Virus record (IMG/VR): IMGVR_UViG_3300024520_000071
Span: 1 to 63,106 of that record
DNA: 63,106 nt
Reading direction: 5' to 3' (one strand)
Source of the DNA: a virus
Lineage: Duplodnaviria; Caudoviricetes
Positions 6,650 to 63,106 of this stretch are shown piece after piece. Positions within the stretch are counted from its first letter, which is position 1. The number at the start of each line of letters is the position of its first letter. Below the pieces are notes generated by a model that worked only from the letters and a program-made list of their open reading frames with translations, did no database searches and had not been told where the DNA came from. The position numbers were made by a program, and so were the translations under genes.

Positions 6650-7035
6650 GATTCCTCCTGGTTGTTGGTGCCCGGGGCAGGATTCGAACCTGCAACCATC
6701 GGGCAACGGTTTGCGGCCGTTTCCCTCCCGTCGAGGGTTGCCCGGGCTTCTTTGGCGAGTTTGGCTGCTTCGGTCTCAATTTCATCGAGGATCACGGTAT
6801 CGATCATCTTGCACACCTCAAGTTCGTTCCGGAGCTTGACGAGTGGGTCGACCTCACTGTTGAACTGCTCCCAGGACCGGTTGATCAATAGGGGGACATC
6901 CAGGAAGGCACCTCGGATCCCTACCACATTGTCGACTCTCTTCCAGTGCTCTTGCAATCGTTCAGCGATGAATGCGTCGAGTTTTCTGGCGGTTTCCTCT
7001 GCTTCCGGGGGATTCCACTTGTACGTGACTTTCAT
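6646..7035 (-). CDS. Hypothetical protein whose 3' end overlaps a tRNA-like gene
   Basis: ORF MKVTYKWNPP..., ATGA/GTGA overlaps with neighbours. Confidence 0.65.
   Translation of the reverse strand: MKVTYKWNPPEAEETARKLDAFIAERLQEHWKRVDNVVGIRGAFLDVPLLINRSWEQFNSEVDPLVKLRNELEVCKMIDTVILDEIETEAAKLAKEARATLDGRETAANRCPMVAGSNPAPGTNNQEES
6666..6747 (-). tRNA. Atypical tRNA, anticodon GCA, with encoded CCA
   Basis: Acceptor GCCCGGG/CCCGGGC-A-CCA; D stem CCCTC/GAGGG; anticodon stem AACGG/CCGTT with loop CCGCAAA; variable stem GCC/GGT; T arm GCAGG-TTCGAAT-CCTGC. Confidence 0.7.
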
Positions 7036-7540: not shown

Positions 7541-8055
7541 CCTGGAAGATGCTCCGCTGCCGGCCCGGACCACCGGCAGTGGTGCGAGTCTGAGCCGTGG
7601 CAATTAACCATCCGGGCCATACCGCCGCCGCGTTCGGACGTCCCGAACCAATGCGACCCGCATTTTGGGCATGTGAACGAGTAGTCGTCCTCCATTTTCG
7701 TTGGCGACTGATTCTCTTTGAAGGTGAACACGACGTATGGCGGCACCCCACCGAGCAGTTCCATGTTCTCCTTGCTGATCGTGATCGTCAGGGGGCCGGG
7801 CTCTTCTTCTGGCTTCACCTCTTCCAGGGATATCGCCGGCCCTTTCGTCGCCTTGTTGTGCCTCTCCTGGGCTTCCCTGAACTCCGGCCGCTCTGTCTGC
7901 CCGACTGGCCATTCCTTCGCACAGCACATCCTGACGACCTTCGTGAAGGTTTGGACGTCCCGCCAATCGAGGAATTCTTTGTTGGTGTCCTGTATGCTGT
8001 TGAACCACTGTCGGATCCGGTCCCAATCATCCTTGGTTAGCATGATCGTCTCCAT
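7537..8055 (-). CDS. Hypothetical protein with C-terminal zinc ribbon
   Basis: FTCPKCGSHWF..CH..C. Confidence 0.65.
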   Translation of the reverse strand: METIMLTKDDWDRIRQWFNSIQDTNKEFLDWRDVQTFTKVVRMCCAKEWPVGQTERPEFREAQERHNKATKGPAISLEEVKPEEEPGPLTITISKENMELLGGVPPYVVFTFKENQSPTKMEDDYSFTCPKCGSHWFGTSERGGGMARMVNCHGSDSHHCRWSGPAAEHLPG

Positions 8056-8378
8056 TGCTGACGTTGATCTGGATGATTGATGCACCTCACCTCATGCATC
8101 TTGACGGTGCCCGGGCAGAACTCGCATTTTGCTACGACATCAGCATCCGGGGATTCCTCGGCCGGCCCATGATCCATGTAGTCCTTGACGAGCTCCCGGA
8201 TCTGGTCCTTGAGATCGGTGTAGCAACCCTTGCACAAATGCTGTTGCCAGACGGCGTTGGCCTCTGTGTCGATGAATTCCTGGCTTTGTCCCCCTGTGTT
8301 GATGCACACAAAGTTTTCCGGCCAGATGTCGTGTAGCGTGGTCTTCATGTCGCACTTGTTGCATTCGAGCGTGATCAT
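8037..8378 (-). CDS. CxxC hypothetical protein
   Basis: CNKC, LCKGC, CEFC. Confidence 0.65.
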   Translation of the reverse strand: MITLECNKCDMKTTLHDIWPENFVCINTGGQSQEFIDTEANAVWQQHLCKGCYTDLKDQIRELVKDYMDHGPAEESPDADVVAKCEFCPGTVKMHEVRCINHPDQRQQWRRSC

Positions 8379-8605
8379 GGCAGATCCACATCCAGTTCAG
8401 ACAACGCCTGAACGACCATGTCTTCCATAGTCCAGGATCCGAATTCCGTGGAGAGTCCCGTGAGCTTCCGGAAGTTTTTGACGCAATCGATGCGCTTCTC
8501 GTAGCCTTCGCTTGATGCTCCGATGATGTTTCTGGTCCTGGGCTCTCTCAGGCGCCACCGGCATTCCCCGACGTTGTCGGCGTAAATCTCGAGGGTGTAG
8601 TTCAT
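8375..8605 (-). CDS. DUF1508/YegP-like protein
   Basis: EIYAD..GECRWRL....NIIGASSEGYEKRIDC matches the DUF1508 consensus. Confidence 0.85.
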   Translation of the reverse strand: MNYTLEIYADNVGECRWRLREPRTRNIIGASSEGYEKRIDCVKNFRKLTGLSTEFGSWTMEDMVVQALSELDVDLP

Positions 8606-9264
8606 GATTCTTTGGTCTCCGTTGGCAGTGGTAGGTTGATGTCGAGTTTTTCCCAGGTTGTCCCTGTTTCGTTGATAGTGAAATGGAGGTTCGCGACCGG
8701 CCTTTTTGTGGATTTGATCGCTTCGTTGTACGACAGGACGGGCAGGAGCGGGATGACTGCGACGTCACCGCCGAGACAGCACTTGCTAAGGCTCGCCCTA
8801 AGTGCATCTTCGAGTCGTTGGTCTGTGATCTTGTATTTCCGGTCATGGCTGTACCATGCCGCGGTTTCCTCGCCGCCCTCGACGTGGAATCCCCATCCTT
8901 TCATGAGGCGCGGCACCTTGCACTGGGCCAGCTCGACTTCGATGAAGTGATCGGAGACCTCGAAGGACCAGTACTTCGACTTGTCGATTACGAGCGTATC
9001 CCGCATCGCGGTCTCGTACGCTTCCTTGGCATCCCGCAGCCGTGTCTCGTACGCTTCCTTGGCATCCCGCAGCCGTGAACCAGTAAATCCGAAGCACCCT
9101 ATGTACTCCCTGGCCTTCCCGAGCAGATTCGTCATAGATTCCAGCCGCAATGCGGCCTCGGCCATCAAAGCGGACGTGGTTTGCGGATGGTCACCGCTGC
9201 CAGCTTCTTCGATCAGTTGAGTTGTGAGCTCTGAACTCGACATTCCTGTTAAGCATGATGCCAT
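8602..9264 (-). CDS. Hypothetical protein with 11-aa tandem duplication
   Basis: GGAGG RBS; RLRDAKEAYET x2. Confidence 0.7.
   Translation of the reverse strand: MASCLTGMSSSELTTQLIEEAGSGDHPQTTSALMAEAALRLESMTNLLGKAREYIGCFGFTGSRLRDAKEAYETRLRDAKEAYETAMRDTLVIDKSKYWSFEVSDHFIEVELAQCKVPRLMKGWGFHVEGGEETAAWYSHDRKYKITDQRLEDALRASLSKCCLGGDVAVIPLLPVLSYNEAIKSTKRPVANLHFTINETGTTWEKLDINLPLPTETKES
9011..9076. repeat. Perfect 33-bp tandem duplication
   Basis: gtctcgtacgcttccttggcatcccgcagccgt x2, in frame. Confidence 0.95.
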
Positions 9265-9321
9265 AGTTTCCTCCCTTTTCTGTTTGACGTTTGGTGAAAG
9301 TGTGGTATCGGTATGGTTGCT

Positions 9322-9393
9322 GCTGGCGCGTAGCTGGCAACCACAGGTTCGGTTGGCCTCCCTGGCTTTGATCCTGTCCAGCTACGCGCTGGT
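9322..9393 (+). ncRNA. Long hairpin RNA candidate
   Basis: 16-bp basal stem (9322-9337/9378-9393, 3 G-U pairs), CAACC bulge, inner ACAGG/CCTGT stem. Confidence 0.5.
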
Positions 9394-9398
9394 TATTT

Positions 9399-9472
9399 GT
9401 TGCGGGCGGGCAGGTGTTCGCCAGTGGTTCATATCCACAGGACGCTCGGCTCGGTACCGAGGCCCGCAACCA
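9399..9472 (+). ncRNA. Multibranch RNA candidate with T-loop-like hairpin
   Basis: Closing stem GTTGCGGGC/GCCCGCAAC; arm GGTGTTC/GGACGCT capped by GTGG-TTCATAT-CCAC; hairpin CTCG-GTAC-CGAG. Confidence 0.5.
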
Positions 9473-9524
9473 ACCCGTAGAAGCCGCCACCCTAATGGGT
9501 TTGGCGAGATTTCTGAAACTGAGA

Positions 9525-9595
9525 CTTCCGTATTGTGTTTGACCACGGTACGGAGGCAAGGCGTATCAGGCTGGGTTCAAATCCCTGGCGGGAAC
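9525..9595 (+). tRNA. Degenerate tRNA-like element (GCA at anticodon position)
   Basis: Acceptor 6/7 pairs with C1-A72 mismatch, D stem TGTG/CACG, anticodon stem TACG/CGTA, T loop GGG-TTCAAAT-CCC; non-canonical loops. Confidence 0.45.
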
Positions 9596-9600
9596 ATTTT

Positions 9601-9671
9601 ACCTCGGTGGTGTAATGGTAGCACATTGCGCTGTTAACGCTTTTGTGTAGGTTCGAATCCTGCCCGGGGTG
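9601..9671 (+). tRNA. tRNA-Asn(GTT)
   Basis: ACCTCGG/CCGGGGT acceptor, G73, TGGTGTAATGGTAGCAC D arm, loop CTGTTAA, GTAGG-TTCGAAT-CCTGC; anticodon stem has two U-U mismatches. Confidence 0.85.
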
Positions 9672-9673
9672 CT

Positions 9674-9850
9674 TCATCGTCCCCTGCCTGCTTCTTCGTC
9701 CATTTCGAATTGCAGCTGTTCTGGCCGCGTCCTCTGCACCTTCTTCGCTCTGGTACACATCTCGTCGCAAGTGTCGGCGTTGCCGGATCGCTTGAACGAG
9801 AAGTACCGCATCTGACAGACGACGCAGCATTTTGTGGCCTTACGCTTCAT
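9674..9850 (-). CDS. Small Cys-rich protein (58 aa)
   Basis: MKRKATKCCVVCQ..TCDEMC; GAGG RBS; below ORF-track cut-off. Confidence 0.6.
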   Translation of the reverse strand: MKRKATKCCVVCQMRYFSFKRSGNADTCDEMCTRAKKVQRTRPEQLQFEMDEEAGRGR

Positions 9851-10154
9851 TGGCCTCTTCCTCCGCTTTGACCCTCTGGCGTTCCTTGTATTCCGCGGCC
9901 TCGCGCTGCCCTTCCAGCCGGAGCTCGTGCATCAGCTGGCGATCGTTCGCTTCGACGATCCGGCGCAAGATCAGGTCTGCCTCGATCCTGGGCGCGCGTT
10001 CCGCTTCCTTCTTTGCCGCCGCGGCCCGGCGCGCTACCGCGGCATCCTTCGCTTTCTGCGCCCGCTTGCGTTTGCTGTGGCCGCGCGGGTACTTCACCTT
10101 CTTGACGTCTGATACATACAGCGTCATCGTGTCAGAGATTTTCTTCTTCTTCAT
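9840..10154 (-). CDS. Basic helical protein
   Basis: AAGGAG RBS; K/R/A-rich. Confidence 0.6.
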   Translation of the reverse strand: MKKKKISDTMTLYVSDVKKVKYPRGHSKRKRAQKAKDAAVARRAAAAKKEAERAPRIEADLILRRIVEANDRQLMHELRLEGQREAAEYKERQRVKAEEEANEA

Positions 10155-10449
10155 CTTTACTCCTTTGGCGGTTCGCTTCTTCAAAACCCAGGATGATCCT
10201 GGCCTCTTCGTCCTCTTCCCGTGCAAACTCGTACTTGTGGGCTGTCGGCCCCAAGAGCCTCGATCCCAGCGGCTTCACCCACAGGAATTCACCGTCGCAC
10301 GTAAAGCCGTAGAGATGCGTTGTCGTCCTCGCGACGTGGCACATGTAGGACTCAGACACGATCCAGTCTATCGGCTCGTCGCTGCCAATGAATAATCGCG
10401 CGCGTACGATGTGCGACTCATCCCATCTCGTCCCTCTGTATACGCTCAT
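10132..10449 (-). CDS. Hypothetical protein
   Basis: Packed ORF. Confidence 0.6.
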   Translation of the reverse strand: MSVYRGTRWDESHIVRARLFIGSDEPIDWIVSESYMCHVARTTTHLYGFTCDGEFLWVKPLGSRLLGPTAHKYEFAREEDEEARIILGFEEANRQRSKDEEEENL

Positions 10450-10754
10450 TGCGGCGTCCTCATCTGTTCGAGCAGCTCGGATCCCATCTTCTGAATCCGA
10501 TAGAATTCCTCTGATCCCATATCGCTTTCCCGGACCCTCTTCAAGATCATCGTGACCACTTGGATCGGGATGTCATAGATGTCCGCCATGATCTCTTTCT
10601 GCGCTTCCAGCACTGCGATATCCGGAAGCTCCGGGCAGTCTTCGATCTCCCGCTTCACAACGTGCTTTTTTATTTTCTTGATAATTGCGATATCCAGGAC
10701 CAGATATGACCCGGCATGATCCTCTTCGATTAAGAACTGGCGCTTGCTGATCAT
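10446..10754 (-). CDS. Hypothetical protein
   Basis: ATGA overlaps. Confidence 0.6.
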   Translation of the reverse strand: MISKRQFLIEEDHAGSYLVLDIAIIKKIKKHVVKREIEDCPELPDIAVLEAQKEIMADIYDIPIQVVTMILKRVRESDMGSEEFYRIQKMGSELLEQMRTPQ

Positions 10755-11131
10755 TTCCCCACCATCGCCGCATCATAAGCGGTACTCTGGGTGATCGCCG
10801 CCTTTCCGGCGCCCATGGCGACCTCGTGCGACAGTCGTAGATCCTTGATGTGCTCGTTCTTTGCGTCGACGATACCCTTGGTGTCCACGAAGTCCCGCGG
10901 TCTCAGGCCGCCGGCCCAGAGGTCGTCCATGATCCGCTGCATCCGCTCTTCCGCAAGGAGGATGTCGCACCCCCTCGACACTTCGCTCCGCCCGCCCGTG
11001 GAACTGTAAGCGTCCATGGTAATAGCTACGCATTCGTGCGTGACGCGGTCATCTTCATCTGCGCTGACGACGGACATCACCCATCCCAGCCGATACTCAT
11101 CTTTGTGTAGCCGGATTGTCATGTGGCTCAT
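10751..11131 (-). CDS. Hypothetical phage protein
   Basis: Q.IMDDLWAGGLRP....A...HIKDLR is a recurrent phage motif. Confidence 0.7.
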   Translation of the reverse strand: MSHMTIRLHKDEYRLGWVMSVVSADEDDRVTHECVAITMDAYSSTGGRSEVSRGCDILLAEERMQRIMDDLWAGGLRPRDFVDTKGIVDAKNEHIKDLRLSHEVAMGAGKAAITQSTAYDAAMVGK

Positions 11132-11183
11132 GATTGACCTATTGGATTGTGGTTGTACTTTGCATGAACCCAGGAAGGATCCG

Positions 11184-11474
11184 ATGACGAAAATGGAAGC
11201 TATCCAGCAATGGCTCGAAGAACACGAAGAGACAGCACTGACCGCGGACGGCTTTGATGATGCGGTGATTGGAATTGTCGGTGGTCATGTCGGCCGGCCG
11301 TATCGCGTGGTCTACGACTACGAGAAGTGCGTGCAGGTCTTGATGTCCCGCGACGAGATGTCAGAAGAAGACGCATTCGATCACATGGAGTTCAATGTTG
11401 TGGATGCGTACGCTGGTCCTGAGACGCCGGAGTTCCTGGCGTCGGCAGAAGCGATTCTGGAACAGGCGTCTTAG
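11184..11474 (+). CDS. Conserved acidic phage protein
   Basis: ADGFDDAVIG..VVYDYEK..MSEEDA..MEFNV..AY.G..TP pattern common in aquatic phages. Confidence 0.8.
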   Translation: MTKMEAIQQWLEEHEETALTADGFDDAVIGIVGGHVGRPYRVVYDYEKCVQVLMSRDEMSEEDAFDHMEFNVVDAYAGPETPEFLASAEAILEQAS

Positions 11475-11958
11475 CCGCGTCGAACTGAACAAACTCCAAT
11501 CGATCGACCGGACAGAAGTAGCACTCCTGGCTCCGGCCGTGGAATGTCTTTGCCTCTACGGTCCAGTATGAGCGCGTGGTATGGCAGTTGACGACCGCGA
11601 CCGTGGTCAGCGTCGTGTTCCAGATGAAGTAGTAGAACGGCTTCGGGAACTTTTTGTCGTGCGTGTGCTTGATGTCGACCATGATCGTGCGATACGGGAA
11701 GTCCCGGGCACAGCTGAACTGAATGTTCTGGCGCCCCTTGCTCTCGACCATCACGCTCACCTCGACGGGCATGGTCATCCGGATATCGCCAGCGTCGGCG
11801 TACTGCGCGCGCACAGACGGATCCGGGCGGACCACCGTGGGCATGACCCTGGATTGCAGTCCGAGCGTGTGCTCGAGAAATTCACCGGTTCGGTGTGCTG
11901 CGTGTACGGACCCTTCCAGATCCGCGACAAACGTGGGATCGATTTCGTCAAGATTCAT
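11392..11958 (-). CDS. Putative PD-(D/E)XK nuclease
   Basis: DAGDI...VESKGR..F....DFPY..IMVD motif. Confidence 0.6.
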   Translation of the reverse strand: MNLDEIDPTFVADLEGSVHAAHRTGEFLEHTLGLQSRVMPTVVRPDPSVRAQYADAGDIRMTMPVEVSVMVESKGRQNIQFSCARDFPYRTIMVDIKHTHDKKFPKPFYYFIWNTTLTTVAVVNCHTTRSYWTVEAKTFHGRSQECYFCPVDRLEFVQFDAAKTPVPESLLPTPGTPASQDQRTHPQH

Positions 11959-13510: not shown

Positions 13511-13734
13511 TCACCTCTGTATTTTGTATGAATTGCAATTACGATCGCGCTCAGAACCAATCCCAGTATAATTGCAAGGAAGACGAGCTTGAACCCCAGG
13601 AATGCGTCTGCCCCGGTAAACGCAAAAACCCCGTCTAAGCAGATCCCGCCCCGGTGAACCATGACCCCCGCGGTGGCGGTAGAAATGGAAAAGACAGGAT
13701 CTGCTTGGAAAGGGTTTTTGATAGACAATTGCAT
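13507..13734 (-). CDS. Small membrane protein
   Basis: Hydrophobic LVFLAIILGLVLSAIVIAI. Confidence 0.55.
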   Translation of the reverse strand: MQLSIKNPFQADPVFSISTATAGVMVHRGGICLDGVFAFTGADAFLGFKLVFLAIILGLVLSAIVIAIHTKYRGE

Positions 13735-32304: not shown

Positions 32305-35300
32305 ATGCCCGCACCTCGTCCAAAGGTAGTCCTGAATGCTTACGGTCAGTCGACCCGCGGCATTCCTGGCGGTGTAGCCGGTACGACACAGGGCTACCAG
32401 CCGCGCGTGTCGATACCGAATTACCAAGCTCCCGATCGTCCGGGTGCTTTTGGCGAAGGCGTTGGTGTCGGCATGCAGGGCCTCAAGGAGATGGGCGGTG
32501 CCGCAATTGCTGTTGGCGGCAAGCAATTGGGTAGTCCTGGAATGATGCGATACGGCATCGGCATAATGGATCGCGCCAGCGCCGCACAGCAAGACGTCCT
32601 TACCCGGGCCCAGACCTACGAGGACATCGACGGCTTTGGAACTTTCGTCGAGTGGATGCAGTTCAACATGGGTCGCGCGGCCCCGTCAGTCGCGGAAGTG
32701 GCCGTGAGCTCCATGATTGGCGCGGCAATGGGCGGCGGCGTTGGTGCAATTCCTGGTGCTTTTGGATCCGGCGCCGCGCGTAAAGCGTTGTTGAAGATGG
32801 CCAAAGGAGAAATCCTCGATCGAGCCGAGATGCGTTTGGCGCAGCAGGCAATCAATGCAGCTGGGCGTGCCCAGATTAAAAAGGCCATGGTCAGTGGTGG
32901 CGACGACCTGACCGCGATTACCGCAGCAGTGGGCACAGGTCCAACCGAAGCGATGCAGCTTCTCAAGGCGACTGCGATCGGCCAAGGGGTTCGCGGCGGT
33001 GCTCACGGCGGCGGGATGGCAGCTGGCTACGAGCTCGGCGTCGGAGAGATCGGGTCGAGCCTGTACCAAGCGACCGGCGAGATCCATGCGGGCCCGGCGC
33101 TCGTCGGCGGCATCCCTCACGCCTATCTCGAATACCTTCCCTATGCCACATTGGCTAAGTCCATCGGCAAAACTGTGCGTCGGCAAGCTCAAAAAGATAT
33201 CAACACAATCGTAGCTGAACGAGCCGCTGCCGGCGCTACTCCTTGGAATCCGAACACCGCGATGGCGAAAGCCGCCGCTGCCGGGGTCGCGAAAAGCACG
33301 CTGATCGAGCCGATCACAGAAGAGTTGCAGACTGAGGTCGAGCTCCTGGTCCGTGCTGGCGTCGATCCTACCTTTGATTTTGGCGGCGACGAAGCATTCA
33401 GCCAGCGCATGCACGCATTTATCGACTCGATACCGGGCGGACTGTTCTTTGGAGCTCCTGGGGGTGTCGCTGGCGGCGTACGCGGCCGTAAGGAAGCACA
33501 GGGCATGAATGTCGAGCTCCAAAAGTGGATCGACAAGTACGGCACGGCCCTCGACGACGATCTGGACAATCCAGCTGGCGGCGGTACTGGCGGCACGCCC
33601 GCGGGCACCAAAAATATCCTGGACCCCACGGATTCTGCTGGACTCCCAGTTACTCCGAACCCGGCACCGCCGAACCCGGCACCGCCGACGCCCCCCGCCG
33701 CTCCGGCACCGCAAGGACCGGCCGCGGCACCGCAAGAACCCGCGCCAATGCCGCAAGGCCCCATCGTGCCGCCGCCGCCCGATCCGCCCGCAGCAATGGA
33801 TCCATTCTATGCGATGTTCGAGGCTCATGAGGATGCTTATGTTACTATTAACGGGAAAGACAGTGCGATTCTCATCGCGGCCGAACTTGAGGAAATACGG
33901 TTCAATAGTCCAGAAGAGGTCAAGGCATACGCCATAGATTTATCACGCCAGCAGTTATTCCAGAATATCCAGGCCAAGATAGATGCTGGTATGAACTTGT
34001 CTGCATCTGACCCCAGCGTTGATGACTTTAAGGCGATGCAAGACGCCTTGGAGGGCGCAGGGTTGCCGCGATCGGCCAAGATCGATGAAGAGATTGAATC
34101 TCTCAATGCGCATATTGCCGCAGAGGCAGTTCCAGGGTATGTTGAACCAACCACTCCCGGGGCGCCCGCGGGGGTTGCGTCTGAGCCATCGGTCGGCACG
34201 GCTGGCGATCCAGTGTCAACTTCACAATCTCCACAGGCGACTTCCGGGACTCTTTCGGAAGTCGAAAAACCCAAAACACCAACACAAACGGAGGTGCAAG
34301 ATGCATCCGAAGAACCGGCAGATCAAAACCTCGATGACAATCGGGGACGGGATCGCACACCAAAAGGGGGGAATCGCGTCGAGTCCCCCAAAGACAAGCT
34401 GCGAGGCCGAACGGGCCGGCGGCGAAAAAGGCAAGTCGGAAAAACTGCGGTCGGCAGCGGCCTGCAAGTAGACGGCAAATCGGTAGACCCGGCGGCGAAG
34501 GGCGACCCAGTTCAACCTTCGCTGTCGGAGATGCCTCCCGACCTTCCCGCCGCGAAAGCTACGGTCCCGGACCAGTTCACTACCGAACTTGGATCTACCT
34601 ACGAGATCCATGCAAACAATACCACAACGCGGAATAAGGCTAAACGTAAAGGGCACCCGAATGACTCAGGACTAAAGGATAGGTCCGATCAAACCTACTA
34701 CGTCAAAAGCGATGATGCTTGGCGCCTCGCCCTGCCCGAGGGCAATTTTAGGATCGTTGATCATGGCGACGACACGATAAGTCTCGCCACCCCTGACAAG
34801 AATACAGCGAAATGGGGCATCGCTAAGTCAAATAAAAATATTCCTGTATCGAAGGAACCCTCGGAAGGGACGCATCCTGTCGAGGTATGGTTCAAGACTA
34901 AGACCGAGGGCAGCACGGCCTATCGAAAAGCGCACATCGGGAACAAGATCACCAAAGTGCAGAGCTCGAAGATGACGGAGCAGGAACTGTTTGCGGAGCA
35001 GGAGCAGGAGCAGGAGCAGGAGGCAAAAGAAGTTGCCCCAGAGGCCAAAGAGGATCCACCCGCGAAGAAGCCGGCCGAGAAGAAGAAGCAACCCCTGGCT
35101 ACAAAATCTCCGGTCACTCCGAAAAAGAAACCTGCAAAGAAGGATAATTCGAAACCTACATGGATCAAACCTAGAGAAGGCAAGCCGGCCAGCGATGCGG
35201 CCAAGCAAAGGGCTCTTAGTCTGGGAATCAGAGCCAAAAAACAGCCCGGCGAGAAAGGTCGTTGGGAATGGCTCAACTTAAAAATTTCGAGATTCACAGA

Positions 35301-38300
35301 AGTATTCGTTAAATTTCTCAATGCTGTTGTTGGTATTGACTTTGTGCGTGTAAGGAGTGACATCGACATATCTCATGCACAACTCGAAAGAGATCGTAAT
35401 TCCCTTTATTTAGAGGGCAAGGATTTTGATACGGCTCTAAGAACCGGAGAAGCCACGAAGTCACAGGCCGATGATTTATTGTATTCGATCGGCGAATTTT
35501 CTATTCATGTCAACGAGAGGATGAAACGGATAGACGTCCAGCATCACATGAGCACTTCCTCGGTAGATAAAGAAAAACTTTCAAAGGCCCATAAAGAACT
35601 AAGCGAACTTGCCAGTGCGCTGGATGCTTACTCTGAGGATCTTATCGATTATGCGGAAGTGAATCTAACAGACAAGCCGCGGAAGCAGCCAAAGGCGCCT
35701 GTCGAGAAAAAGGTTCCATTCAAGCCAAAGGAAAATTACGCAGGCCCGCCCCGAGTGTCCTTTCTGGTGACGTGGATGACCGAGAATAAAATCCAGCTGA
35801 AACCCAGAGAAACTACGTCATGGAATAAGGTAAAAACCAAGGGTGTCGCTCTTGATAATAGTACGTTATTTGGGGAGGATCGCGAGGACGAGATTCAGCG
35901 GGCATTAGACTTGATTAAGGAAGTTGATGCATTCGTGGAAAGCCTGAACAAGAAAAAATCACATCCTGATTTTTCGGTGAAACTCTCGACCTTTTCAGCC
36001 GAATTAGTCGATTACTATTCGGACTCTCCGAAAAAGGCTAAAGTGGCACCCGAGCCGACAATCCGGCCACTGGTTGAGCCCAGCAAGAAAATGGCCACAC
36101 ATATTGCCAACTTCCAGGCAGATGTAGAAGCCGACATGCGTGCGTCCCTGGAAAAAGGTCGCACAGTTAAGGTGCCGCCCGCGCTCTCTGTGAAATACGA
36201 TCCCTTCCGACAAGTCGAAGCGAGAGTTGATCCGGATACTCAAGGAATCGAGCTCTTTACAACTTCGAAAAAACATCCGGACGATAAGAGTCCAGGATTG
36301 GTGCCCGGGAAGGCTGGCGAGAAACGTGGCCCCGACTTTGATGACATTGATGGTTTGATCCGTGGTCTGACGGAAGCCGATCAGCGAAGCCCCGCCGAGA
36401 TTGCTGCTGATTCTGCCGAAATTATAGAAGCCTCAAAAGCAGCAAGGAAGCATACTATTTATCGGAAGCTGAAACAAGCTTTTACTGCCGTGCCAAAGTA
36501 CGAAAAGAAAAAAGACAGTAGCGAACGAATTGGGATTGCACGGGCTAATGATGCTGCACGTCATTTTGATGACAAATACAAGAAGGATGATCGCCGGAAA
36601 AACTATCGTATTATCGGCGAAAAAGGATCCGATCAGGTTTTTCTTATAAACAAATTCGATGACGTCATCCAGGAATTCGATTCAATCGATGCCTTCATCA
36701 AAAAATGGGAAGAGAAGGACAAGGAAGAAAAGGCGAAAGATTCTGGCACCCGATTCTCGATGCATCGTGATCCTGATCTTTCCGATGAAAGAGCACCATC
36801 CCGAGCGGAAAATCCGGATTATTCTCCATATAGCGGGAATAAGCAGTCGGGCATAGAAAGGCTGAATAGACTGTCGAAGGACGATAGGGAAGCCCTGTAT
36901 TCCAGAATCAAAACACATCTCACTGATTTCTTCGAATCATGGGATGGGGTTTATGATATCGTCCGATATCTTAGAGAAAGGAGCGTAGATCCAACTGTCG
37001 ATACAGGACAAGCCTACTACAAGAAAGATTACGTCAGAACTGATGGGACTATTGGTATCGGCACAGATAATCTACCCTCGGCTGGGAGAGCGCCCTATGG
37101 CTGGGGCAAGGTCCAAGCCTTTGAAAAGTACTTCGAGGACCATTATCACGATGACCGTCCGAACGATGCTTTAGATACGGATGCACAAATAGAAAAGGCC
37201 ATGGACGTCATGGTTGAATATGTAGCGGTGCGCATTCTTCATAGAGAGGGCATCCTTAGTTCTAAAGAATCTGGAAATCAGCTAGCCATGGCCACTTATA
37301 GTCTATTCGAAAAGGCCCTAAAAGATAATGTCACAGGCATCCGCCCTGATCTGAGAATGCTCATCTTTTTCAACGGCGATCTCGATTATCAAGGCGAGAA
37401 ATTTAAGTCCTATTCTGCCGAGCAAATGGCAAAGAAGCTGGCAGAGCGTCGGAGTAATGCAGAGGCTCTGTATAAGGATCTTCGCACGGAATATGAGTCC
37501 ATGATGAAGGTTCTTGGGGAAAGCGCCGATCCTGATTCATATATAGGCACTCGCTTCTCCCAGCACCGTGACGCGAAACTTGCCGAGGCCGACGAGCTCG
37601 ACAGCCTTGACGAAACCATCGACGACGAGCTCTATTCGCTGCCGGTGGAGATGATGAAGCGAATCTTCGAGTTGAAGGACGCGATCACTCAGGCGTACGC
37701 TGATGGCACGCACGAGACCAAAGAGGTAGAGGACCAGGATGCCGAGCTCGACCATCTCTATAACGAGGCCGAGGCGATACTCGACGCGGCGCACGAGGAC
37801 ATGGGCGCGATCGAGACCGACAACGATCGGTACAAGGCTCCGGAGATTCCCGAGGGTGCCAGTAGCGTGGCATCGCTTGAAGCAGCACTTTCCAAAGTCC
37901 TGGCGGCGAAGGGGTGGACGGAAACGACCAGACCCCATATCGTCCAGTCCGTTGTCGAGCTTCCGTTTGATGCTCCCGCCAACATCCCGGGCGTCTACCA
38001 CAATGGCGAGGTCTGGCTGATCGCCGACAACATCGCGACCGGCCGGGAGCAGCACGCATTTCTCGAGGCCCTGTTCCATGAGCAGGTTGGGCACGTCGGG
38101 GTCCGCCGGATCTTGGGCGACCGCCTCAATGACACGCTCGATCGCGTCTGGGAATCGTATTCTGACAGCGAAGCCATGCTGAAAAACATCGACGTCTACT
38201 TCCCGGATGGCGACTTCGACAGCAATAACCCCGAGCATACCCGTCTGGCGGCAGAAGAGTTCATTGCCCTCCGCGCGCAGCAAGTCCTGCTCGACGGAAC

Positions 38301-41300
38301 AACGATGCCCGGATTCATTAAGCAGATCGTGGCGGCTGTGAGGCAGTTTCTCGCAGATCATGGGTTCACGGTCAAGATGAGCGATCAGGACGTCCTGGCC
38401 CTTATTGTCGCAGCTGACAAAAGTTTGCAGGGACGGCGGAAGTTTTCGGATCAGGTCCAGCGCGGATTGCGGTTTGCCATGGACAACGAGCCGCTGTGGT
38501 TCAGCCAGATGCGCCGGCAGATCGAGGACCATCTCCCGGACAGTGCCACGAACGCGAATAATGCGAAGCGGATCAAGCGATGGATCGGCTCCGGGCTCAT
38601 TACCTCAGAAGAGGTGGAATGGAGCGGGATCCTTGACGAGCTTCAAAGGCGCGGCCAGGACAAGATGTCGAAGGAAGAGGTTCTGCAATACCTTGCCGAC
38701 AATGAGGTCGTTGTTACAGAGAATGTGCTGGGATCCGTGCCCCCAAAGGAATGGCGTGAGGCTGGTGCAGCGTATGCCGAAGCAAATCTCAGAAGAGACA
38801 ATGCCGAACGTGTTCTCCGGGCTCGCAAGATCGAACACGTCAAAGCCGACATCGACTACCTCGACGAGTTGAACGATTTACCGAATCGAAAAAACAGCAT
38901 TGCCAACTATAAAAAGGCATTAGACAAAGCCGAAAAGCTGATGGAAGAGGCCAAGCTCGAAGCAGAAAAAACCACCAAGGAAGCAAATAGGCTATCGAAG
39001 GAATTCTCAAAGGTGCAGCAGGCGAATCCGGCGACGGGATGGGAAGCGCGTCATGACCGCTGGACGCAGCGCGGAGGCGTGGGGTATCAAGAACTGCTTT
39101 TGTTCTACACGCCGAAAGGAAAGCCTGGGGAAGTAGAGAAAGCGCCAAAGGAATACAAAGACGCTCTTTTCTATTATGATGCCCTTGTGGATGATGTTCG
39201 CGATCTGACTTCCTGGGATCAGCACGATCTCGATCTACTCAACAAATGGGATCACGACGAAACCGTGCTGTCGGAAATGGAGAAGGATCACGTTCGGGAC
39301 ATGCTTGAACAGTCACAGATGGACATGGTGACACGAAGCCGTATGGTTTTTCTGGGACAGGGAATATATAGAGCAGCAAAGGGCAATCGATTCTTCATCG
39401 GCACCAGTCATAGAAAATACCGTAACATCGAAGACCGTTTTTTTGTTTACCAAGAAGAGCAGCAGGCACTCGAAGGTGATCATGACGCCGCGCTATTCCA
39501 GACGAACTCGTTCGAAGAGGCACTGAGCGTGGCGACGGGTAGTACGCAAGGAAACGTGTTTTCGTCCGATCACTTCCCGGACACTAACAACTTCTTTGCG
39601 CACGTTCGCTTCAAGACGCGATTCGATGCAGACGGCAATAAGGTTTTGTTCATCGAAGAATACCAGTCGGACTGGAATACGAGAGCGCGCAAAATTCGCC
39701 AGGACCGTATCGCGCAACTGATTAACCAAAACTACACGAAGGCCCAAGCAGAAAGTCTTATTCCTGAGACTTTTGGTTATGGTGACACGCCGGGCATGAT
39801 CTGGACAAGGGTATCCGGAGATGAAATGACCTCAGAGTCTACTCGGGGGGATGGTCGCAAATGGCGATGGACTATCGTCCGAAAGGCCGATAACCATTTT
39901 GATCTAATCAATCCCGCCAATATTCCAGAAAAGTTTTCATCTCTGGCCGATGCCAAACGTCATGCCGAAGCTATCAATTCGGAAATGGTAGAAAGCGTTC
40001 CTGATCTTCCGTTCAAGCAGTCTGCCTTAAAGATGGGCATGCGCCGGATGATTCGCCATGCCGCTGAAAACGGATATGACAAGATCGCCTGGACTCCGGC
40101 AGAGATGCAACTCCGTCTTTATGATACCGGCTTTAATGGCAGAGTCGAATGGACGGTCAACCGAAAAAACATAGATATTGTACTAAGTAATCCCAAAACT
40201 GACCGATCTACGGATTTGATCATCAGCCATAAGGGGGAAGTGGTATCTGGCGATCAACTGAACTTGAACATCAATCGCCAAAAGGATATCTCTGACTTCC
40301 TGCCGCCTGGAATCGTTGACGAAATTCTCGGTTCTCCAAGCGGTCATCGGCAAATGATCGATGATGTTTCCATTGGCGACCAGAAGGCCCCGTTGATCTA
40401 TGACAAGAATATGGTCCGGGATACCGCGAGGTACGTGAAGCAATGGGGCGCGACTGTCGAGAAATCGCCGATCATATTCAACAAAACCAACGCCAGGGTC
40501 CGGATGCTGAACGGAACCCCAACGGTCCTCGACAACCAACCTCCTACCGAGGACAATACCGATTCTGACGATCGCGTAGAATTTCCTACCATTGCAGCGG
40601 CCGAAGCCGAAGTCGAACGCCGTAACCGCCAGCATGCCATGGAGCGTAGTGAATCTTTAGGGCAGGATGTCCACTCTGTCACGATCACGCCGGAGATGCG
40701 GCAAGCTGCCCGACGCGCGGCGCCGATGTTCAGTCGGCCGGCAAAGAATCCGACGACGGACGAGCAGACCCGATTCTCCATGCACAACGCCATGGACGAG
40801 GCAATCGCGCCCGAGTTGGAAGATTCCGGGCACAAGCAAGGCAAGACCGACAAGCTCCGCGGCGCGCGACCGTGGTTCCTGGGCGGTTTCTCTCTTGATC
40901 AAATCCTGGAAGTCTGGGACGATCTCTTCGATAAAGGGCTTGCGCATCATGGCGTGACGTACGGCAAGTTCGATGCCTCGAAGGTCGAGCGGCAGACGAG
41001 GGGCGTGGACGTCGGTCAGCGGCTCTGGGACTATCATGACAGCCACACCGATACCGAGACGGGGCAATATGGTTCTTCTATGACCCGTCTGTTCTTGGAC
41101 GGCACGTTCTTCAAGCTCACGCCACATGGCCCGTTCGAAGAAGGTTTGAACATGGAAGAGACGAAGAGCATGTTGCGTCAGGCGAACCTTGAATATGATG
41201 CCATGGAGAAGATGTCTTCCTCTAAGGAGAAAGAGGAAGAACTGGCACTCGCCAAGAAAGCGATACAGGTCATGGAACGCGACATCCGGGAAGAGGACAC

Positions 41301-43884
41301 CCGCAAAGAGATGCATGATGAGTTGGTGCTGATCTATGCGGCCCTCGACGGCAAGTATGATCCAAAGACAAAGAAGGGATCTGGGCCATTAGGTTTGTAC
41401 CACGACACCCTGAATCATCTGGAAGAAAACTTTGAGGCAATGGAGAAGGCTCTGCATGATCGTGTCGATCGAATTCTCGATGCCATGGGAGTTGATCGCG
41501 AAAGTGACATGGAGAAAAGCCGGAAAGAATTGCATGACGAGATCCGCCTGAGATTCGACGAGGCCCGCGGCATAGGTATCTACTTTCCGTTATCTCGATT
41601 CGGTGATTACATCCTCATCGGAGAGCGGTTAGATGAATTCGGCGACCTGGATCGACGGGTCTCTGCTTACGACAGTGCGACCCGTGCGAATGCAGAGGAA
41701 AAGAAATGGATGGAAGAGGAAGGGTATGCCGTCGTCCAGAAGCACAAGAAGGAATACGATCCTGTAAATGACGGCGTCAGCACGGGATTCGTCCAGAATC
41801 TTTTCGACGCGCTTGATAAGCACGGGATTGAGGATGAGTCATTGCTCGACGAAATCAATCAGATGGCGATTCGGTCGTTGCCGGATCTGAGTACGCGCAA
41901 GCACTTCGGGCATCGCAAATTCATCTCCGGGTACACCCAGGACTTTGTCAGGGCCTTTTCTCACAGTTCTTTCCATGCTGCACATCACATCGCGCGCATT
42001 GAGTATGCGGACATTATCCGTGGCGAAATAAAAGAGATGCAGAAGGATACAGACGAGGTGGAAGACTATACCAAGAACACTGGCCAGACCGGCGAGGCCC
42101 GCACGAAGTCTGCGAAGATGCAGCAGGTCGTGAATGAGCTCCTGCTACGGCAGAAAGCGGCAATGAATCCACAAGGGCACCCGGCTGTCAACTTTCTGGG
42201 GTCAATGGGGTTCGCGTGGATGATCGGCCCGGGGATTGCCGGCACACTGATCAACGCCAGTCAGGTTGGCATGTTCACGATGCCGTGGCTCGGGAGCAAG
42301 TACGGATTCTGGTCCGCAAATAAGGAGCTTCTGGACGCATACAAGTTGTTGCATGGCGAGCGCAAGACTCATTTGACCGATGACGGCGAAATTGAGCCGA
42401 ATAAGCGCCAACTGGACAACTGGTTCGATCTCGAGCAGAGCGAGAAGCTGGTCAAGCATCAGAAAGAGATGCAGAAGAAGCATAAGGAATACAATTTCTC
42501 CGAGTGTTTACAGGAGCTCAAGAATGACGGCACCATCTCCGTCACCCAGACTCATGATCTGAGCGGGCTGGCCAATCTGGATTTCTCTGTCCAGTTCAAT
42601 AGCGCCGCCGCCCGGAAGTTGTTCCAGGCTATGCGTATGGTCGCGTACCCGTTTCATACCGCCGAGGTCATCAATAGGCAGGTCACAGCCAAGGCAGCAT
42701 ACGATCTGGCGATCAAGGGCGTCAAAGGCGTCAAGGGCCGCAAGGGGCATCCGGCGATGAGTCACAAGAAGGCCGTGGCGTTTGCCAGGACCGCGATTAA
42801 CAGCACTCACTTCAACTATCGCTCGACCAACCGCGCCCGGTACATGCAGGGCAACGTCGGCCGGATCGTGTTCATGTTCCGCCAGTACGCGCTGAACGTC
42901 ATGTTCCTGCAAGGTCGCGCGATCCGGAACATCTTCGTCGGGTTCAGGAAGAACAAGAAAGGTGTCGTCGACAAGAATTCTGAGGAATATCAGGCGGCTG
43001 TGGAAGCTACGAAGATGCTCAGTGCCATCTACGGGCTCCATTTCGCCGTTGCCGGTGCGGTGGGGCTCCCGATCTGGGGCGCGTCCGAAATGATGATCAA
43101 CGCCATCATGAACGGTTTCGGCGACGACGACGATCCGTACGACTTCAAGACGAACTTCCGCAACTTCATGGCCGATACCCTCGGGACCACGGCCGGCGAG
43201 TTCATTTCCCATGGCGCGATCCGGGGCCTTGGCGCCGACGTGTCCGCCAGGATGTCGATCGATGTGATGGATATGATGCTGCCGCGTACGCCCGACACCC
43301 AGAGCCAGGGTCGTCGCAAGTTCCAGGAGATGTTTACAGCTGTTGGTGGGCCCGTCGTCAGCATCGCCAGCAACCTTTATGCGGGCATGAGTCAGTGGAG
43401 TCAGGGAGACATCTATCGTGGCACCGAAACAATGATGCCGCGGTTTATACGTGACTTTATGCGTGGGGGACGTTACTTTGTGGAAGGCGTGACCACGCAT
43501 GAAGGCGAAGAGCTCATGGACATCAGTGCATGGGAAGCTGGGTTGCAGGCACTGGGGTTCACGCCCGGCGACGTCGCTGAGATGTATCAGGGGCGTCGAT
43601 CGATCAAGAAGAAGGAAACACTTTTGAACCGGAGGCGCCGGGAGCTCTTGAACAAGTACGACAAGGCCCGTCGAGCCGGAGCACGGAAGCGTCTCAGGAG
43701 TTTGAGGTCTGAGATCCGCAAGTTCAATGCGATCAATCCCGAGTTCGAGATCCGCAAGGAACACCTGCAAGCCTCGAAGAAATCCAAACAACGTGCCCGC
43801 CGACAGACGAAGAGGGGCACTTACCTACAAACAGAACGTAAAGACCTGAGAAGGGTCGGACGTTTCGCAAACATAGGAAACTGA
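32305..43884 (+). CDS. Giant polyvalent/DNA-ejection protein with PLxRFG domain and zincin-like peptidase
   Basis: 3859 aa; LFHEQVGHVG..EEFIA (HExxGH), LFIEEYQSDW, YFPLSRFGDY, C-terminal F.Y...NR.RYMQG..MFRQY. Confidence 0.85.
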   Translation: MPAPRPKVVLNAYGQSTRGIPGGVAGTTQGYQPRVSIPNYQAPDRPGAFGEGVGVGMQGLKEMGGAAIAVGGKQLGSPGMMRYGIGIMDRASAAQQDVLTRAQTYEDIDGFGTFVEWMQFNMGRAAPSVAEVAVSSMIGAAMGGGVGAIPGAFGSGAARKALLKMAKGEILDRAEMRLAQQAINAAGRAQIKKAMVSGGDDLTAITAAVGTGPTEAMQLLKATAIGQGVRGGAHGGGMAAGYELGVGEIGSSLYQATGEIHAGPALVGGIPHAYLEYLPYATLAKSIGKTVRRQAQKDINTIVAERAAAGATPWNPNTAMAKAAAAGVAKSTLIEPITEELQTEVELLVRAGVDPTFDFGGDEAFSQRMHAFIDSIPGGLFFGAPGGVAGGVRGRKEAQGMNVELQKWIDKYGTALDDDLDNPAGGGTGGTPAGTKNILDPTDSAGLPVTPNPAPPNPAPPTPPAAPAPQGPAAAPQEPAPMPQGPIVPPPPDPPAAMDPFYAMFEAHEDAYVTINGKDSAILIAAELEEIRFNSPEEVKAYAIDLSRQQLFQNIQAKIDAGMNLSASDPSVDDFKAMQDALEGAGLPRSAKIDEEIESLNAHIAAEAVPGYVEPTTPGAPAGVASEPSVGTAGDPVSTSQSPQATSGTLSEVEKPKTPTQTEVQDASEEPADQNLDDNRGRDRTPKGGNRVESPKDKLRGRTGRRRKRQVGKTAVGSGLQVDGKSVDPAAKGDPVQPSLSEMPPDLPAAKATVPDQFTTELGSTYEIHANNTTTRNKAKRKGHPNDSGLKDRSDQTYYVKSDDAWRLALPEGNFRIVDHGDDTISLATPDKNTAKWGIAKSNKNIPVSKEPSEGTHPVEVWFKTKTEGSTAYRKAHIGNKITKVQSSKMTEQELFAEQEQEQEQEAKEVAPEAKEDPPAKKPAEKKKQPLATKSPVTPKKKPAKKDNSKPTWIKPREGKPASDAAKQRALSLGIRAKKQPGEKGRWEWLNLKISRFTEVFVKFLNAVVGIDFVRVRSDIDISHAQLERDRNSLYLEGKDFDTALRTGEATKSQADDLLYSIGEFSIHVNERMKRIDVQHHMSTSSVDKEKLSKAHKELSELASALDAYSEDLIDYAEVNLTDKPRKQPKAPVEKKVPFKPKENYAGPPRVSFLVTWMTENKIQLKPRETTSWNKVKTKGVALDNSTLFGEDREDEIQRALDLIKEVDAFVESLNKKKSHPDFSVKLSTFSAELVDYYSDSPKKAKVAPEPTIRPLVEPSKKMATHIANFQADVEADMRASLEKGRTVKVPPALSVKYDPFRQVEARVDPDTQGIELFTTSKKHPDDKSPGLVPGKAGEKRGPDFDDIDGLIRGLTEADQRSPAEIAADSAEIIEASKAARKHTIYRKLKQAFTAVPKYEKKKDSSERIGIARANDAARHFDDKYKKDDRRKNYRIIGEKGSDQVFLINKFDDVIQEFDSIDAFIKKWEEKDKEEKAKDSGTRFSMHRDPDLSDERAPSRAENPDYSPYSGNKQSGIERLNRLSKDDREALYSRIKTHLTDFFESWDGVYDIVRYLRERSVDPTVDTGQAYYKKDYVRTDGTIGIGTDNLPSAGRAPYGWGKVQAFEKYFEDHYHDDRPNDALDTDAQIEKAMDVMVEYVAVRILHREGILSSKESGNQLAMATYSLFEKALKDNVTGIRPDLRMLIFFNGDLDYQGEKFKSYSAEQMAKKLAERRSNAEALYKDLRTEYESMMKVLGESADPDSYIGTRFSQHRDAKLAEADELDSLDETIDDELYSLPVEMMKRIFELKDAITQAYADGTHETKEVEDQDAELDHLYNEAEAILDAAHEDMGAIETDNDRYKAPEIPEGASSVASLEAALSKVLAAKGWTETTRPHIVQSVVELPFDAPANIPGVYHNGEVWLIADNIATGREQHAFLEALFHEQVGHVGVRRILGDRLNDTLDRVWESYSDSEAMLKNIDVYFPDGDFDSNNPEHTRLAAEEFIALRAQQVLLDGTTMPGFIKQIVAAVRQFLADHGFTVKMSDQDVLALIVAADKSLQGRRKFSDQVQRGLRFAMDNEPLWFSQMRRQIEDHLPDSATNANNAKRIKRWIGSGLITSEEVEWSGILDELQRRGQDKMSKEEVLQYLADNEVVVTENVLGSVPPKEWREAGAAYAEANLRRDNAERVLRARKIEHVKADIDYLDELNDLPNRKNSIANYKKALDKAEKLMEEAKLEAEKTTKEANRLSKEFSKVQQANPATGWEARHDRWTQRGGVGYQELLLFYTPKGKPGEVEKAPKEYKDALFYYDALVDDVRDLTSWDQHDLDLLNKWDHDETVLSEMEKDHVRDMLEQSQMDMVTRSRMVFLGQGIYRAAKGNRFFIGTSHRKYRNIEDRFFVYQEEQQALEGDHDAALFQTNSFEEALSVATGSTQGNVFSSDHFPDTNNFFAHVRFKTRFDADGNKVLFIEEYQSDWNTRARKIRQDRIAQLINQNYTKAQAESLIPETFGYGDTPGMIWTRVSGDEMTSESTRGDGRKWRWTIVRKADNHFDLINPANIPEKFSSLADAKRHAEAINSEMVESVPDLPFKQSALKMGMRRMIRHAAENGYDKIAWTPAEMQLRLYDTGFNGRVEWTVNRKNIDIVLSNPKTDRSTDLIISHKGEVVSGDQLNLNINRQKDISDFLPPGIVDEILGSPSGHRQMIDDVSIGDQKAPLIYDKNMVRDTARYVKQWGATVEKSPIIFNKTNARVRMLNGTPTVLDNQPPTEDNTDSDDRVEFPTIAAAEAEVERRNRQHAMERSESLGQDVHSVTITPEMRQAARRAAPMFSRPAKNPTTDEQTRFSMHNAMDEAIAPELEDSGHKQGKTDKLRGARPWFLGGFSLDQILEVWDDLFDKGLAHHGVTYGKFDASKVERQTRGVDVGQRLWDYHDSHTDTETGQYGSSMTRLFLDGTFFKLTPHGPFEEGLNMEETKSMLRQANLEYDAMEKMSSSKEKEEELALAKKAIQVMERDIREEDTRKEMHDELVLIYAALDGKYDPKTKKGSGPLGLYHDTLNHLEENFEAMEKALHDRVDRILDAMGVDRESDMEKSRKELHDEIRLRFDEARGIGIYFPLSRFGDYILIGERLDEFGDLDRRVSAYDSATRANAEEKKWMEEEGYAVVQKHKKEYDPVNDGVSTGFVQNLFDALDKHGIEDESLLDEINQMAIRSLPDLSTRKHFGHRKFISGYTQDFVRAFSHSSFHAAHHIARIEYADIIRGEIKEMQKDTDEVEDYTKNTGQTGEARTKSAKMQQVVNELLLRQKAAMNPQGHPAVNFLGSMGFAWMIGPGIAGTLINASQVGMFTMPWLGSKYGFWSANKELLDAYKLLHGERKTHLTDDGEIEPNKRQLDNWFDLEQSEKLVKHQKEMQKKHKEYNFSECLQELKNDGTISVTQTHDLSGLANLDFSVQFNSAAARKLFQAMRMVAYPFHTAEVINRQVTAKAAYDLAIKGVKGVKGRKGHPAMSHKKAVAFARTAINSTHFNYRSTNRARYMQGNVGRIVFMFRQYALNVMFLQGRAIRNIFVGFRKNKKGVVDKNSEEYQAAVEATKMLSAIYGLHFAVAGAVGLPIWGASEMMINAIMNGFGDDDDPYDFKTNFRNFMADTLGTTAGEFISHGAIRGLGADVSARMSIDVMDMMLPRTPDTQSQGRRKFQEMFTAVGGPVVSIASNLYAGMSQWSQGDIYRGTETMMPRFIRDFMRGGRYFVEGVTTHEGEELMDISAWEAGLQALGFTPGDVAEMYQGRRSIKKKETLLNRRRRELLNKYDKARRAGARKRLRSLRSEIRKFNAINPEFEIRKEHLQASKKSKQRARRQTKRGTYLQTERKDLRRVGRFANIGN

Positions 43885-62101: not shown

Positions 62102-62277
62102 TTGCTCACCTTGGTTGCCTGTGGTTTAGTTCGAATGATGTGGACGGCAACATCGACGACCGTGCCCACCTCGTCCGCCGACAGTGGCGAACGAAGGGGC
62201 ATGGTCTGGCGATGGTAACATCCGCGCGATGTGATCATCACGGTCGTACGGGATTGGACCTTTGCTTTCAATTGCGA

Positions 62278-63000: not shown

Positions 63001-63106
63001 TGGTGATCGTTGCGGTTGATTAGGTCTGGTCGTCGTCGCGCGGTTCCTCCGGCACCACTAAGAATTGATAGTTGCAGAATGTTCGAGCGCATCGATGGCG
63101 CTGGAT
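62637..63106. repeat. Terminal direct repeat, right copy (imperfect)
   Basis: Matches 1-470 with offset 62636. Confidence 0.95.

Follow-up and report, generated by a model that had tools for sequence, protein, structure and literature searches.

The described systems closest to the locus considered here are phage tRNA clusters and RNAs that carry a tRNA-like module. In the sections of the account of phage T4 drawn on here, the tRNA region carries extra small RNAs of unknown role, RNAC and RNAD (PMC3014915). Phage tRNAs that resist nucleases or neutralise defences have also been reported; the excerpts used here describe mycobacteriophage C1 tRNAs, a tRNA that neutralises PARIS and tRNAs that evade retrons (PMC10264068, PMC11464382, PMC11555353). 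YrlA, in the part of its description used here, combines a long stem with a tRNA-like module that is cleavable by RNase P and receives CCA (PMC4201824). We analysed a virus record of the Caudoviricetes (IMG/VR record IMGVR_UViG_3300024520_000071; the entire stretch of 63,106 nucleotides is referred to as the window), in which a gap between two leftward genes holds a cassette of five closely spaced structured elements on the plus strand (Table 1; elements are numbered from the 5' end). With a probability of roughly 0.55, we interpret this cassette as a small rightward phage tRNA transcription unit in which a leader hairpin accompanies a single working tRNA, a relic, and an RNA that is either a noncanonical tRNA or tRNA-like.

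Elements 2, 4, and 5 are tRNA or tRNA-derived, which places the cassette among phage tRNA clusters, a known kind of unit; the undescribed RNA-based system suggested by an earlier note, written from the letters alone, is therefore not supported. As in the T4 tRNA region, at least as the cited sections present it, close-set tRNA genes on one strand, with a presumed precursor, lie beside structured small RNAs that are not tRNAs, and RNAC and RNAD thus provide a precedent for extra small RNAs in such a region (PMC3014915). Unlike the T4 cluster, the present unit has only one canonical tRNA, opposes the neighboring genes, and begins with a 72-nt hairpin, and it lacks sequence similarity to any INPHARED phage. 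The combination of a long stem with a tRNA-like module is shared with YrlA as excerpted (PMC4201824); however, that description places the tRNA-like module within one RNA, whereas the elements of the cassette stand side by side.

Table 1. Features of the cassette and its surroundings, with positions in the window
Feature	Position	Strand	Description
Gap	9265-9673		Non-coding; between the ATG of 8602-9264(-) and the stop of 9674-9850(-)
Candidate promoter, TTGACG-N16-TATCGG	9284..9311	+	TG one base before the second hexamer; weak, putative
Leader motif UGGUUGC	9314..9320	+	Complementary to GCAACCA at 9337-9343 (bulge) and 9466-9472
Leader hairpin, 72 nt (element 1)	9322..9393	+	16-bp base, CAACC bulge, imperfect upper stem; then U-rich UAUUUGUUG
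Noncanonical tRNA-shaped RNA, anticodon CAU (element 2)	9401..9472	+	ARAGORN tRNA-Met(CAT), default threshold; CCA encoded
Spacer hairpin (element 3)	9478..9515	+	-16.6 kcal/mol, z -3.0, 1/200 shuffles as good
Decayed tRNA-like element, GCA at the anticodon position (element 4)	9525..9595	+	ARAGORN tRNA-Cys(gca), ps80 only
Canonical tRNA-Asn(GUU) (element 5)	9601..9672	+	Rfam RF00005, 58.5 bits, E 5.8e-12; ARAGORN
Second tRNA-like gene, GCA at the anticodon position	6666-6747	-	Rfam 31.7 bits (cut-off 29); CCA encoded
Leftward gene, 220 aa, ORFan	8602..9264	-	GGAGGA 5 nt upstream of the ATG; +0.24 bits/codon; no family
Leftward gene, 58 aa, CxxC...CxxxC motifs	9674..9850	-	Stop 1 nt from the end of tRNA-Asn

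A canonical tRNA-Asn and a noncanonical tRNA-shaped RNA

The last element of the cassette is a canonical tRNA-Asn. Its match to the Rfam tRNA model (9601-9671) covers model positions 1-71 and lies above the gathering threshold of 29 bits, and a search of the whole window at Rfam gathering thresholds returned this tRNA as its sole result. The anticodon stem contains two U-U oppositions, which are non-standard pairs, confirming the weakened stem described in the earlier note, and CCA is not encoded. The anticodon loop reads CUGUUAA, which we take to be the ordinary form for tRNA-Asn. A search by pattern across 185,579 genomes recovered four tRNA-Asn genes from Patescibacteria, each the lone tRNA in its 8-kb locus, and the alignment of these four bacterial genes with the phage tRNA-Asn shows a mean column identity of 86%. 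Since three of the four bacterial genes partly share the feature, having a U-U opposition at one of these two positions, the loosened stem of the phage tRNA is not special. Letter for letter, the phage tRNA shares its D arm and anticodon loop with the tRNA-Asn genes of the four Patescibacteria genome bins, a likeness that may be coincidental and that we do not read as evidence on the host.

Element 2, hereafter the CAU element, folds across 9399-9472 into a 9-bp closing stem with three arms. The cloverleaf features (acceptor, anticodon loop, and T stem) are all present: the acceptor stem is a perfect 7-bp helix followed by A73, the T stem comprises five perfect pairs, and the anticodon loop, UUCAUAU, has 7 nt with U33. 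The features of the conserved core, in contrast, are missing, as the T-loop (CUCGGUA) lacks T54 and A58, position 8 is a G, and the D arm is shortened, with a D stem of only 2-3 pairs. Forty shuffled versions of the genome with dinucleotide content preserved gave no ARAGORN calls at the default threshold, so that the cloverleaf is not attributable to chance. The element had first been described as a multibranch RNA with a T-loop-like arm; the 9-bp stem and the CCA end of that description hold, but the arm in question is the anticodon arm in the ARAGORN reading. Judged by its sequence, the CAU element probably either works as a noncanonical tRNA (for Met, or for Ile should C34 carry a modification) or represents a tRNA-like RNA.

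Between these two lie the less well-structured elements 3 and 4, both of which had been noticed from the letters alone. The spacer hairpin exists, though it is modest, and it matches no Rfam family. Element 4, as far as its bases indicate, is a relic, a decayed tRNA, which agrees with its initial description as a degenerate one: only the T arm is canonical, with the T-loop GGGUUCAAAUCCC, each stem contains a mismatch, and the 5' half is able to form a 13-bp hairpin instead. The tRNA finder does not detect it at the threshold that excludes chance; it is called by ARAGORN at the ps80 setting alone, at which the real genome gives 67 calls and the 40 shuffles average 49.8. Where 0.43 would be expected, the genome contains three exact copies of the T-loop motif GGTTCRANTCC, each of them, including that of element 4, within a tRNA-like element.

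These observations bear on the reading that tRNA-Asn alone is functional and that everything upstream of it represents the decayed remains of a longer tRNA array plus chance structure. The mismatches in every stem of element 4, the marginal structure of element 3, and the failure of elements 2 and 4 in Rfam speak for it. However, the stems of the leader hairpin and of the CAU element are all intact, with z -5.9 and 0/200 shuffles as good for the former and no calls in 40 shuffled genomes for the latter, and 330 nt of junk is seldom retained in a small phage genome. We consider this explanation unlikely.

The gap is non-coding and the RNA strand is the plus strand

Three open reading frames (ORFs) of 112-137 codons, 9224-9637(+), 9191-9559(-), and 9492-9830(-), occupy parts of the gap, and any of them might code for a protein. 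Scored against this genome's own codon usage, they reach -0.27, -0.11, and -0.14 bits per codon, respectively, compared with +0.21 to +0.43 for the 11 training genes and +0.15 to +0.35 for the neighboring leftward genes. Their GC content at third codon positions (GC3) is 0.54-0.55, while the flanking and training genes mostly fall at 0.67-0.78; the flanking gene 9674-9850 has a GC3 of 0.69 and an ambiguous codon score of 0.01. None of the three frames matches a Pfam or PHROG family. The plus-strand frame, 9224-9637, extends into tRNA-Asn, is absent from the record as a called protein, and gave no homolog in a search of 5.8 billion proteins; the concern raised in the earlier note that this overlapping frame might be a conserved protein was thus checked, and the frame proved neither conserved nor coding-like. 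Because the codon scores are negative and no family was found, nor a homolog of 9224-9637, we treat the gap as non-coding and reject the protein-coding reading, the probability of which we regard as negligible.

Within the gap, the five structured elements are tiled on the plus strand with spacers of 5-9 nt, as originally described. For elements 1 to 5, G-U pairs account for 6/29, 2/24, 2/15, 5/21, and 6/23 of the pairs on the plus strand, compared with 0/22, 2/23, 2/18, 0/13, and 1/17 on the minus strand. For the cassette as a whole, the folding energy is -162.8 kcal/mol on the plus strand, against -138.3 kcal/mol on the minus strand. Taken together with the orientation of tRNA-Asn, the G-U pairs and folding energies identify the plus strand as the RNA strand, so that the preference initially deduced from G-U pairs is borne out by the counts, with the energies in agreement.

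The cassette is oriented head-to-head with 8602-9264(-) and tail-to-tail with 9674-9850(-), a geometry that would require a promoter within the 57 nt of 9265-9321. It has the appearance of a rightward unit of its own, flanked on either side by leftward ones, rather than of a cassette within an operon. Accordingly, of the "antisense cassette in a minus-strand gene block" in the earlier note, the plus-strand unit stands, while its setting is better described as that of an independent unit between two leftward ones; the proposal of a separate, non-coding, multi-element small-RNA unit is supported by the tRNA-type elements and by the own-promoter geometry.

The leader hairpin and its pairing partners

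The leader hairpin contains 29 pairs in total, and its base combines 12 perfect Watson-Crick pairs with G-U pairs. Its folding energy is -44.1 kcal/mol on the plus strand, where none of 200 shuffles is as good, and -34.5 kcal/mol on the minus strand. The 72-nt structure drawn at first sight, with its 16-bp base and CAACC bulge, is confirmed. It is unique in the genome for 100% complementary spaced arms of at least 12 nt. Among 21,012 sampled 72-nt windows from both strands, those sampled over the hairpin rank sixth and seventh, and the exact element has a lower energy than every sampled 72-nt window. It matches no Rfam family, the best score being 12.9 bits against a gathering score of 47.

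Directly 3' of the stem lies the U-rich tail TTATTTGTTG, and the hairpin with its U-tract therefore resembles an intrinsic terminator upstream of tRNA-type genes, albeit with a stem that is atypically long for a terminator. It could be a partial terminator metering read-through or, equally, the end of a separate RNA of ~75 nt. The second option leads to a reading in two units, in which the candidate promoter would drive only a stand-alone hairpin small RNA (sRNA) of ~75-80 nt ending at its own U-tract and acting on leftward transcripts antisense to it or on another target, and the downstream tRNA-type genes would depend on read-through or on another start for their expression. The hairpin is indeed the most unusual single structure in the cassette, with UAUUUGUUG immediately after it; a start set by the candidate -35 and -10 boxes would lie a few bases upstream of the hairpin; and an alternative three-hairpin fold can be drawn that uses UGGUUGC/GCAACCA plus a compact terminal hairpin. 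Against such a division, the three terminator-like sites in the region do not exceed the 3.4 found in shuffles, the Rfam search recovered no sRNA family, no target was found, and the evenly spaced (5-9 nt) succession of the hairpin and the tRNA-type elements points to one precursor. On balance, a split into two units is improbable, though it deserves some weight as the leading alternative.

Short phage antisense RNAs that end in an intrinsic terminator are exemplified by the lambda OOP type. The hairpin may resemble this type in its U-tract, in its end ~75 nt from a possible start, and in its position opposite leftward transcription. It differs in that no overlap with a coding region or a ribosome-binding site is seen and in a stem far longer than that of the usual terminator.

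The leader motif just upstream of the hairpin, put forward in the earlier note as an alternative partner of GCAACCA, is present as described. Its second complement, at 9466-9472, is the 3' terminus of the CAU element with its CCA. Across the genome, GCAACCA or TGGTTGC occurs at 11 sites, three of which lie within 9314-9472 and another in the tRNA-like gene at 6666-6747. The genome-wide count is not unusual, as it is reached in 12 of 100 shuffles; for a 160-nt window, a Poisson estimate gives an expectation of ~0.03 such heptamers. In a modelled precursor spanning 9305-9480, the helix 9314-9320/9466-9472 has pair probabilities of 0.95-0.98, and this prediction fits a leader that would hide the 3' end of the CAU element until processing.

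Proposed expression, codon supply, and points against a single tRNA unit

Under the tRNA-unit reading that we favor, a precursor would start within 9265-9321 and run through all five elements. Cleavage at its short A/U-rich spacers would fall to host RNase P and to enzymes of the RNase E or Z type. The 72-nt hairpin and its U-tract would form a leader with a role in stabilisation or processing, or one that, as a partial terminator, controls how far transcription enters the tRNAs. tRNA-Asn(GUU) would be the one clearly working product, most likely topping up Asn decoding for the Asn-rich late genes on the same strand.

Codon usage was compared between 11 rightward late ORFs (9,019 codons) and 13 leftward ORFs (3,260 codons), both sets having been hand-picked by the analyst. 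Asn codons occur at 43.9 per 1000 in the late ORFs versus 32.3 in the leftward ORFs, and AAT at 20.4 versus 7.1; Cys codons show the reverse, at 3.2 versus 28.8 per 1000. This pattern fits the standard codon-supply reading of phage tRNAs and suggests tRNA genes matched to expression classes, with tRNA-Asn placed alongside the Asn-rich late genes and a tRNA-Cys-like gene, that at 6666-6747, among the Cys-rich leftward genes. Small leftward proteins, such as that encoded at 9674-9850 with its CxxC...CxxxC motifs, resemble zinc-binding proteins.

Several observations weigh against a single tRNA unit. A terminator-like hairpin ahead of the tRNAs is awkward for a single precursor. When the same precursor (9305-9480) is folded with the leader/3'-end helix, the energy is -84.3 kcal/mol, compared with -81.2 kcal/mol for the fold with the acceptor stem of element 2, although this gap of 3.1 kcal/mol lies within the error of thermodynamic models. 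The promoter is a weak candidate with a poor -10 box: TTGACG, which the earlier note had proposed as a -35 box, is present at 9284 in the only exact occurrence of TTGACG-N16-TAT in the genome, but a sigma-70 consensus scan of 8000-11500 returned no promoter. No RNA sequencing runs carrying the stretch are listed, compared with five DNA runs, and plus-strand transcription is inferred. The CAU element has no RF00005 match at E<=10 in searches of 801 nt, of an 84-nt slice, or genome-wide, and element 4 has none at the same limit in an 84-nt slice. The codon comparison depends on the hand-picked ORF sets, and homologs of the cassette were found in none of the collections searched.

The value of the locus is mainly one of annotation, which should record a tRNA-Asn, a doubtful tRNA(CAU), and a relic. 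Odd tRNAs appear to be habitual in this genome, given the second tRNA-like gene with an encoded CCA on the minus strand at 6666-6747. In that gene, a C replaces the U before the anticodon, and the variable region has 13 nt. Its T arm and 3' acceptor strand almost match those of tRNA-Asn, and a ribosome-binding site and a GTG start lie directly 3' of it.

Counter-defence and other RNA families

The unusual tRNA shapes also invite a counter-defence interpretation, in which the odd tRNA-shaped RNAs and tRNA-Asn would act as nuclease-resistant replacements or decoys for host tRNA-cleaving defences. The RNAs concerned would be the CAU element at 9401-9472, the GCA element of the cassette, the CCA-bearing GCA tRNA at 6666-6747, and the loosened-stem tRNA-Asn. 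Asn, initiator Met, and Cys tRNAs are nuclease targets. In the CAU element, the stems are intact and the core bases are changed, which looks like selection for shape rather than decay and is the one feature of the cassette that speaks for this interpretation. Since ARAGORN and Rfam disagree on it, the element is a clear case of a tRNA shape whose helices are intact but whose core is altered, the type of molecule predicted by the tRNA-decoy literature. The literature also documents phage tRNAs that evade or neutralise defences directed at tRNAs, and the cassette resembles them, as far as the excerpts describe them, in departing from the host consensus and in its small isoacceptor set (PMC10264068, PMC11464382, PMC11555353). 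The defence tRNAs in those excerpts are otherwise canonical, with changes in the anticodon loop, whereas in the CAU element the D and T core is altered. Nothing in the sequence links the cassette to a defence system. Moreover, the phage has no tRNA repair gene, encoding neither a T4-type RNA ligase nor a CCA-adding enzyme, and the U-U opposition of tRNA-Asn recurs at one position in three of the four aligned bacterial genes. We hold a counter-defence role to be rather unlikely.

A more specific version is that core-altered, shape-keeping tRNA mimics with their own CCA (9401-9472 and 6666-6747), plus a long hairpin whose bulge displays GCAACCA, the heptamer also found at the 3' end of the CAU mimic, serve as decoys or nuclease-proof substitutes, which we offer as a highly tentative idea. 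The masking of the 3' end of the mimic by the leader UGGUUGC until the precursor is processed would be part of it and, taken jointly with it, shares this very low standing.

Searches with all families of Rfam 15 at E<=10 gave best non-tRNA scores of 9-18 bits against gathering scores of 42-100. Several of the identities that the earlier note had listed as candidates fell away at this step. A Y RNA or YrlA relative is rejected, as no Rfam match was obtained at E<=10 and the phage has no Ro60/TROVE (PF05731) or RtcB gene; as a control, the PF05731 search was positive in 2 of 14 genomes. Ribozyme, signal recognition particle (SRP), and riboswitch readings likewise found no Rfam family match. A transfer-messenger RNA (tmRNA) was rejected because ARAGORN finds none and the Rfam gathering search returns tRNA-Asn alone. 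An integration site, that is, an attP with a tRNA fragment, was also rejected, as the genome contains no match to the tyrosine integrase family PF00589; serine recombinases were not searched.

Genome setting and distribution

The 63,106 bases represent the whole virus record, for which CheckV estimates a completeness of 95%, and the sequence is present in five seawater DNA sequencing runs. This marine, lytic-looking phage is an orphan known from seawater metagenomes. Its leftward genes span ~0.6 to 11.1 kb and its rightward structural genes 11.6 to 46.8 kb; the plus-strand proteins include a portal or adaptor protein, a major head protein, and an internal virion protein. The majority of the scanned proteins have no Pfam or PHROG family, and among 5.8 billion proteins the product of 8602-9264 matches only itself.

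The absence of cassette homologs holds across several collections. A blastn search of 8600-10400 against the 50,697 phage records of INPHARED gave no match. Exact or degenerate cassette patterns gave 0 matches in IMG/VR, and a cassette pattern search there produced one chance match, inside a coding region and without a tRNA. In the same database, neither the flanking proteins nor the portal protein has relatives. The major capsid protein has relatives at three IMG/VR loci (40-46% identity) and at three metagenome loci (40-63%). The cassette is absent from all six, one of which has an unrelated tRNA-Gln, and in the closest capsid relative the 5 kb preceding the portal gene are free of tRNAs. 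Contigs from the four metagenome runs compared are near-identical, so that there is no population variation to use; the single difference within the cassette, 9644 T>C, occurs in one low-depth contig and falls in the variable loop of tRNA-Asn.

Several further features of the genome were recorded. On the plus strand, 32305-43884 is a single ORF of 3,859 codons without a Pfam family. The longest inverted repeat of the genome, at 13623-13720, has arms of 24 nt that are 88% complementary and separated by 50 nt, and lies just 5' of the portal gene. Within gene 8602-9264, a 33-nt tandem duplication (8998-9063; 88% identity) encodes the repeated peptide RLRDAKEAYET, and contigs of the metagenome runs break at this duplication. 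A very stable long hairpin at 62135-62226 (plus strand -48.3 kcal/mol, z -4.5; minus strand -51.5 kcal/mol, z -4.9) contains the lowest-energy sampled 72-nt window in the genome and overlaps short ORFs; compared by eye, without alignment, it bears no obvious likeness to the leader hairpin at 9322-9393. The ends of the record, 1-470 and 62637-63106, form an imperfect terminal repeat of 470 nt with 92-93% identity.

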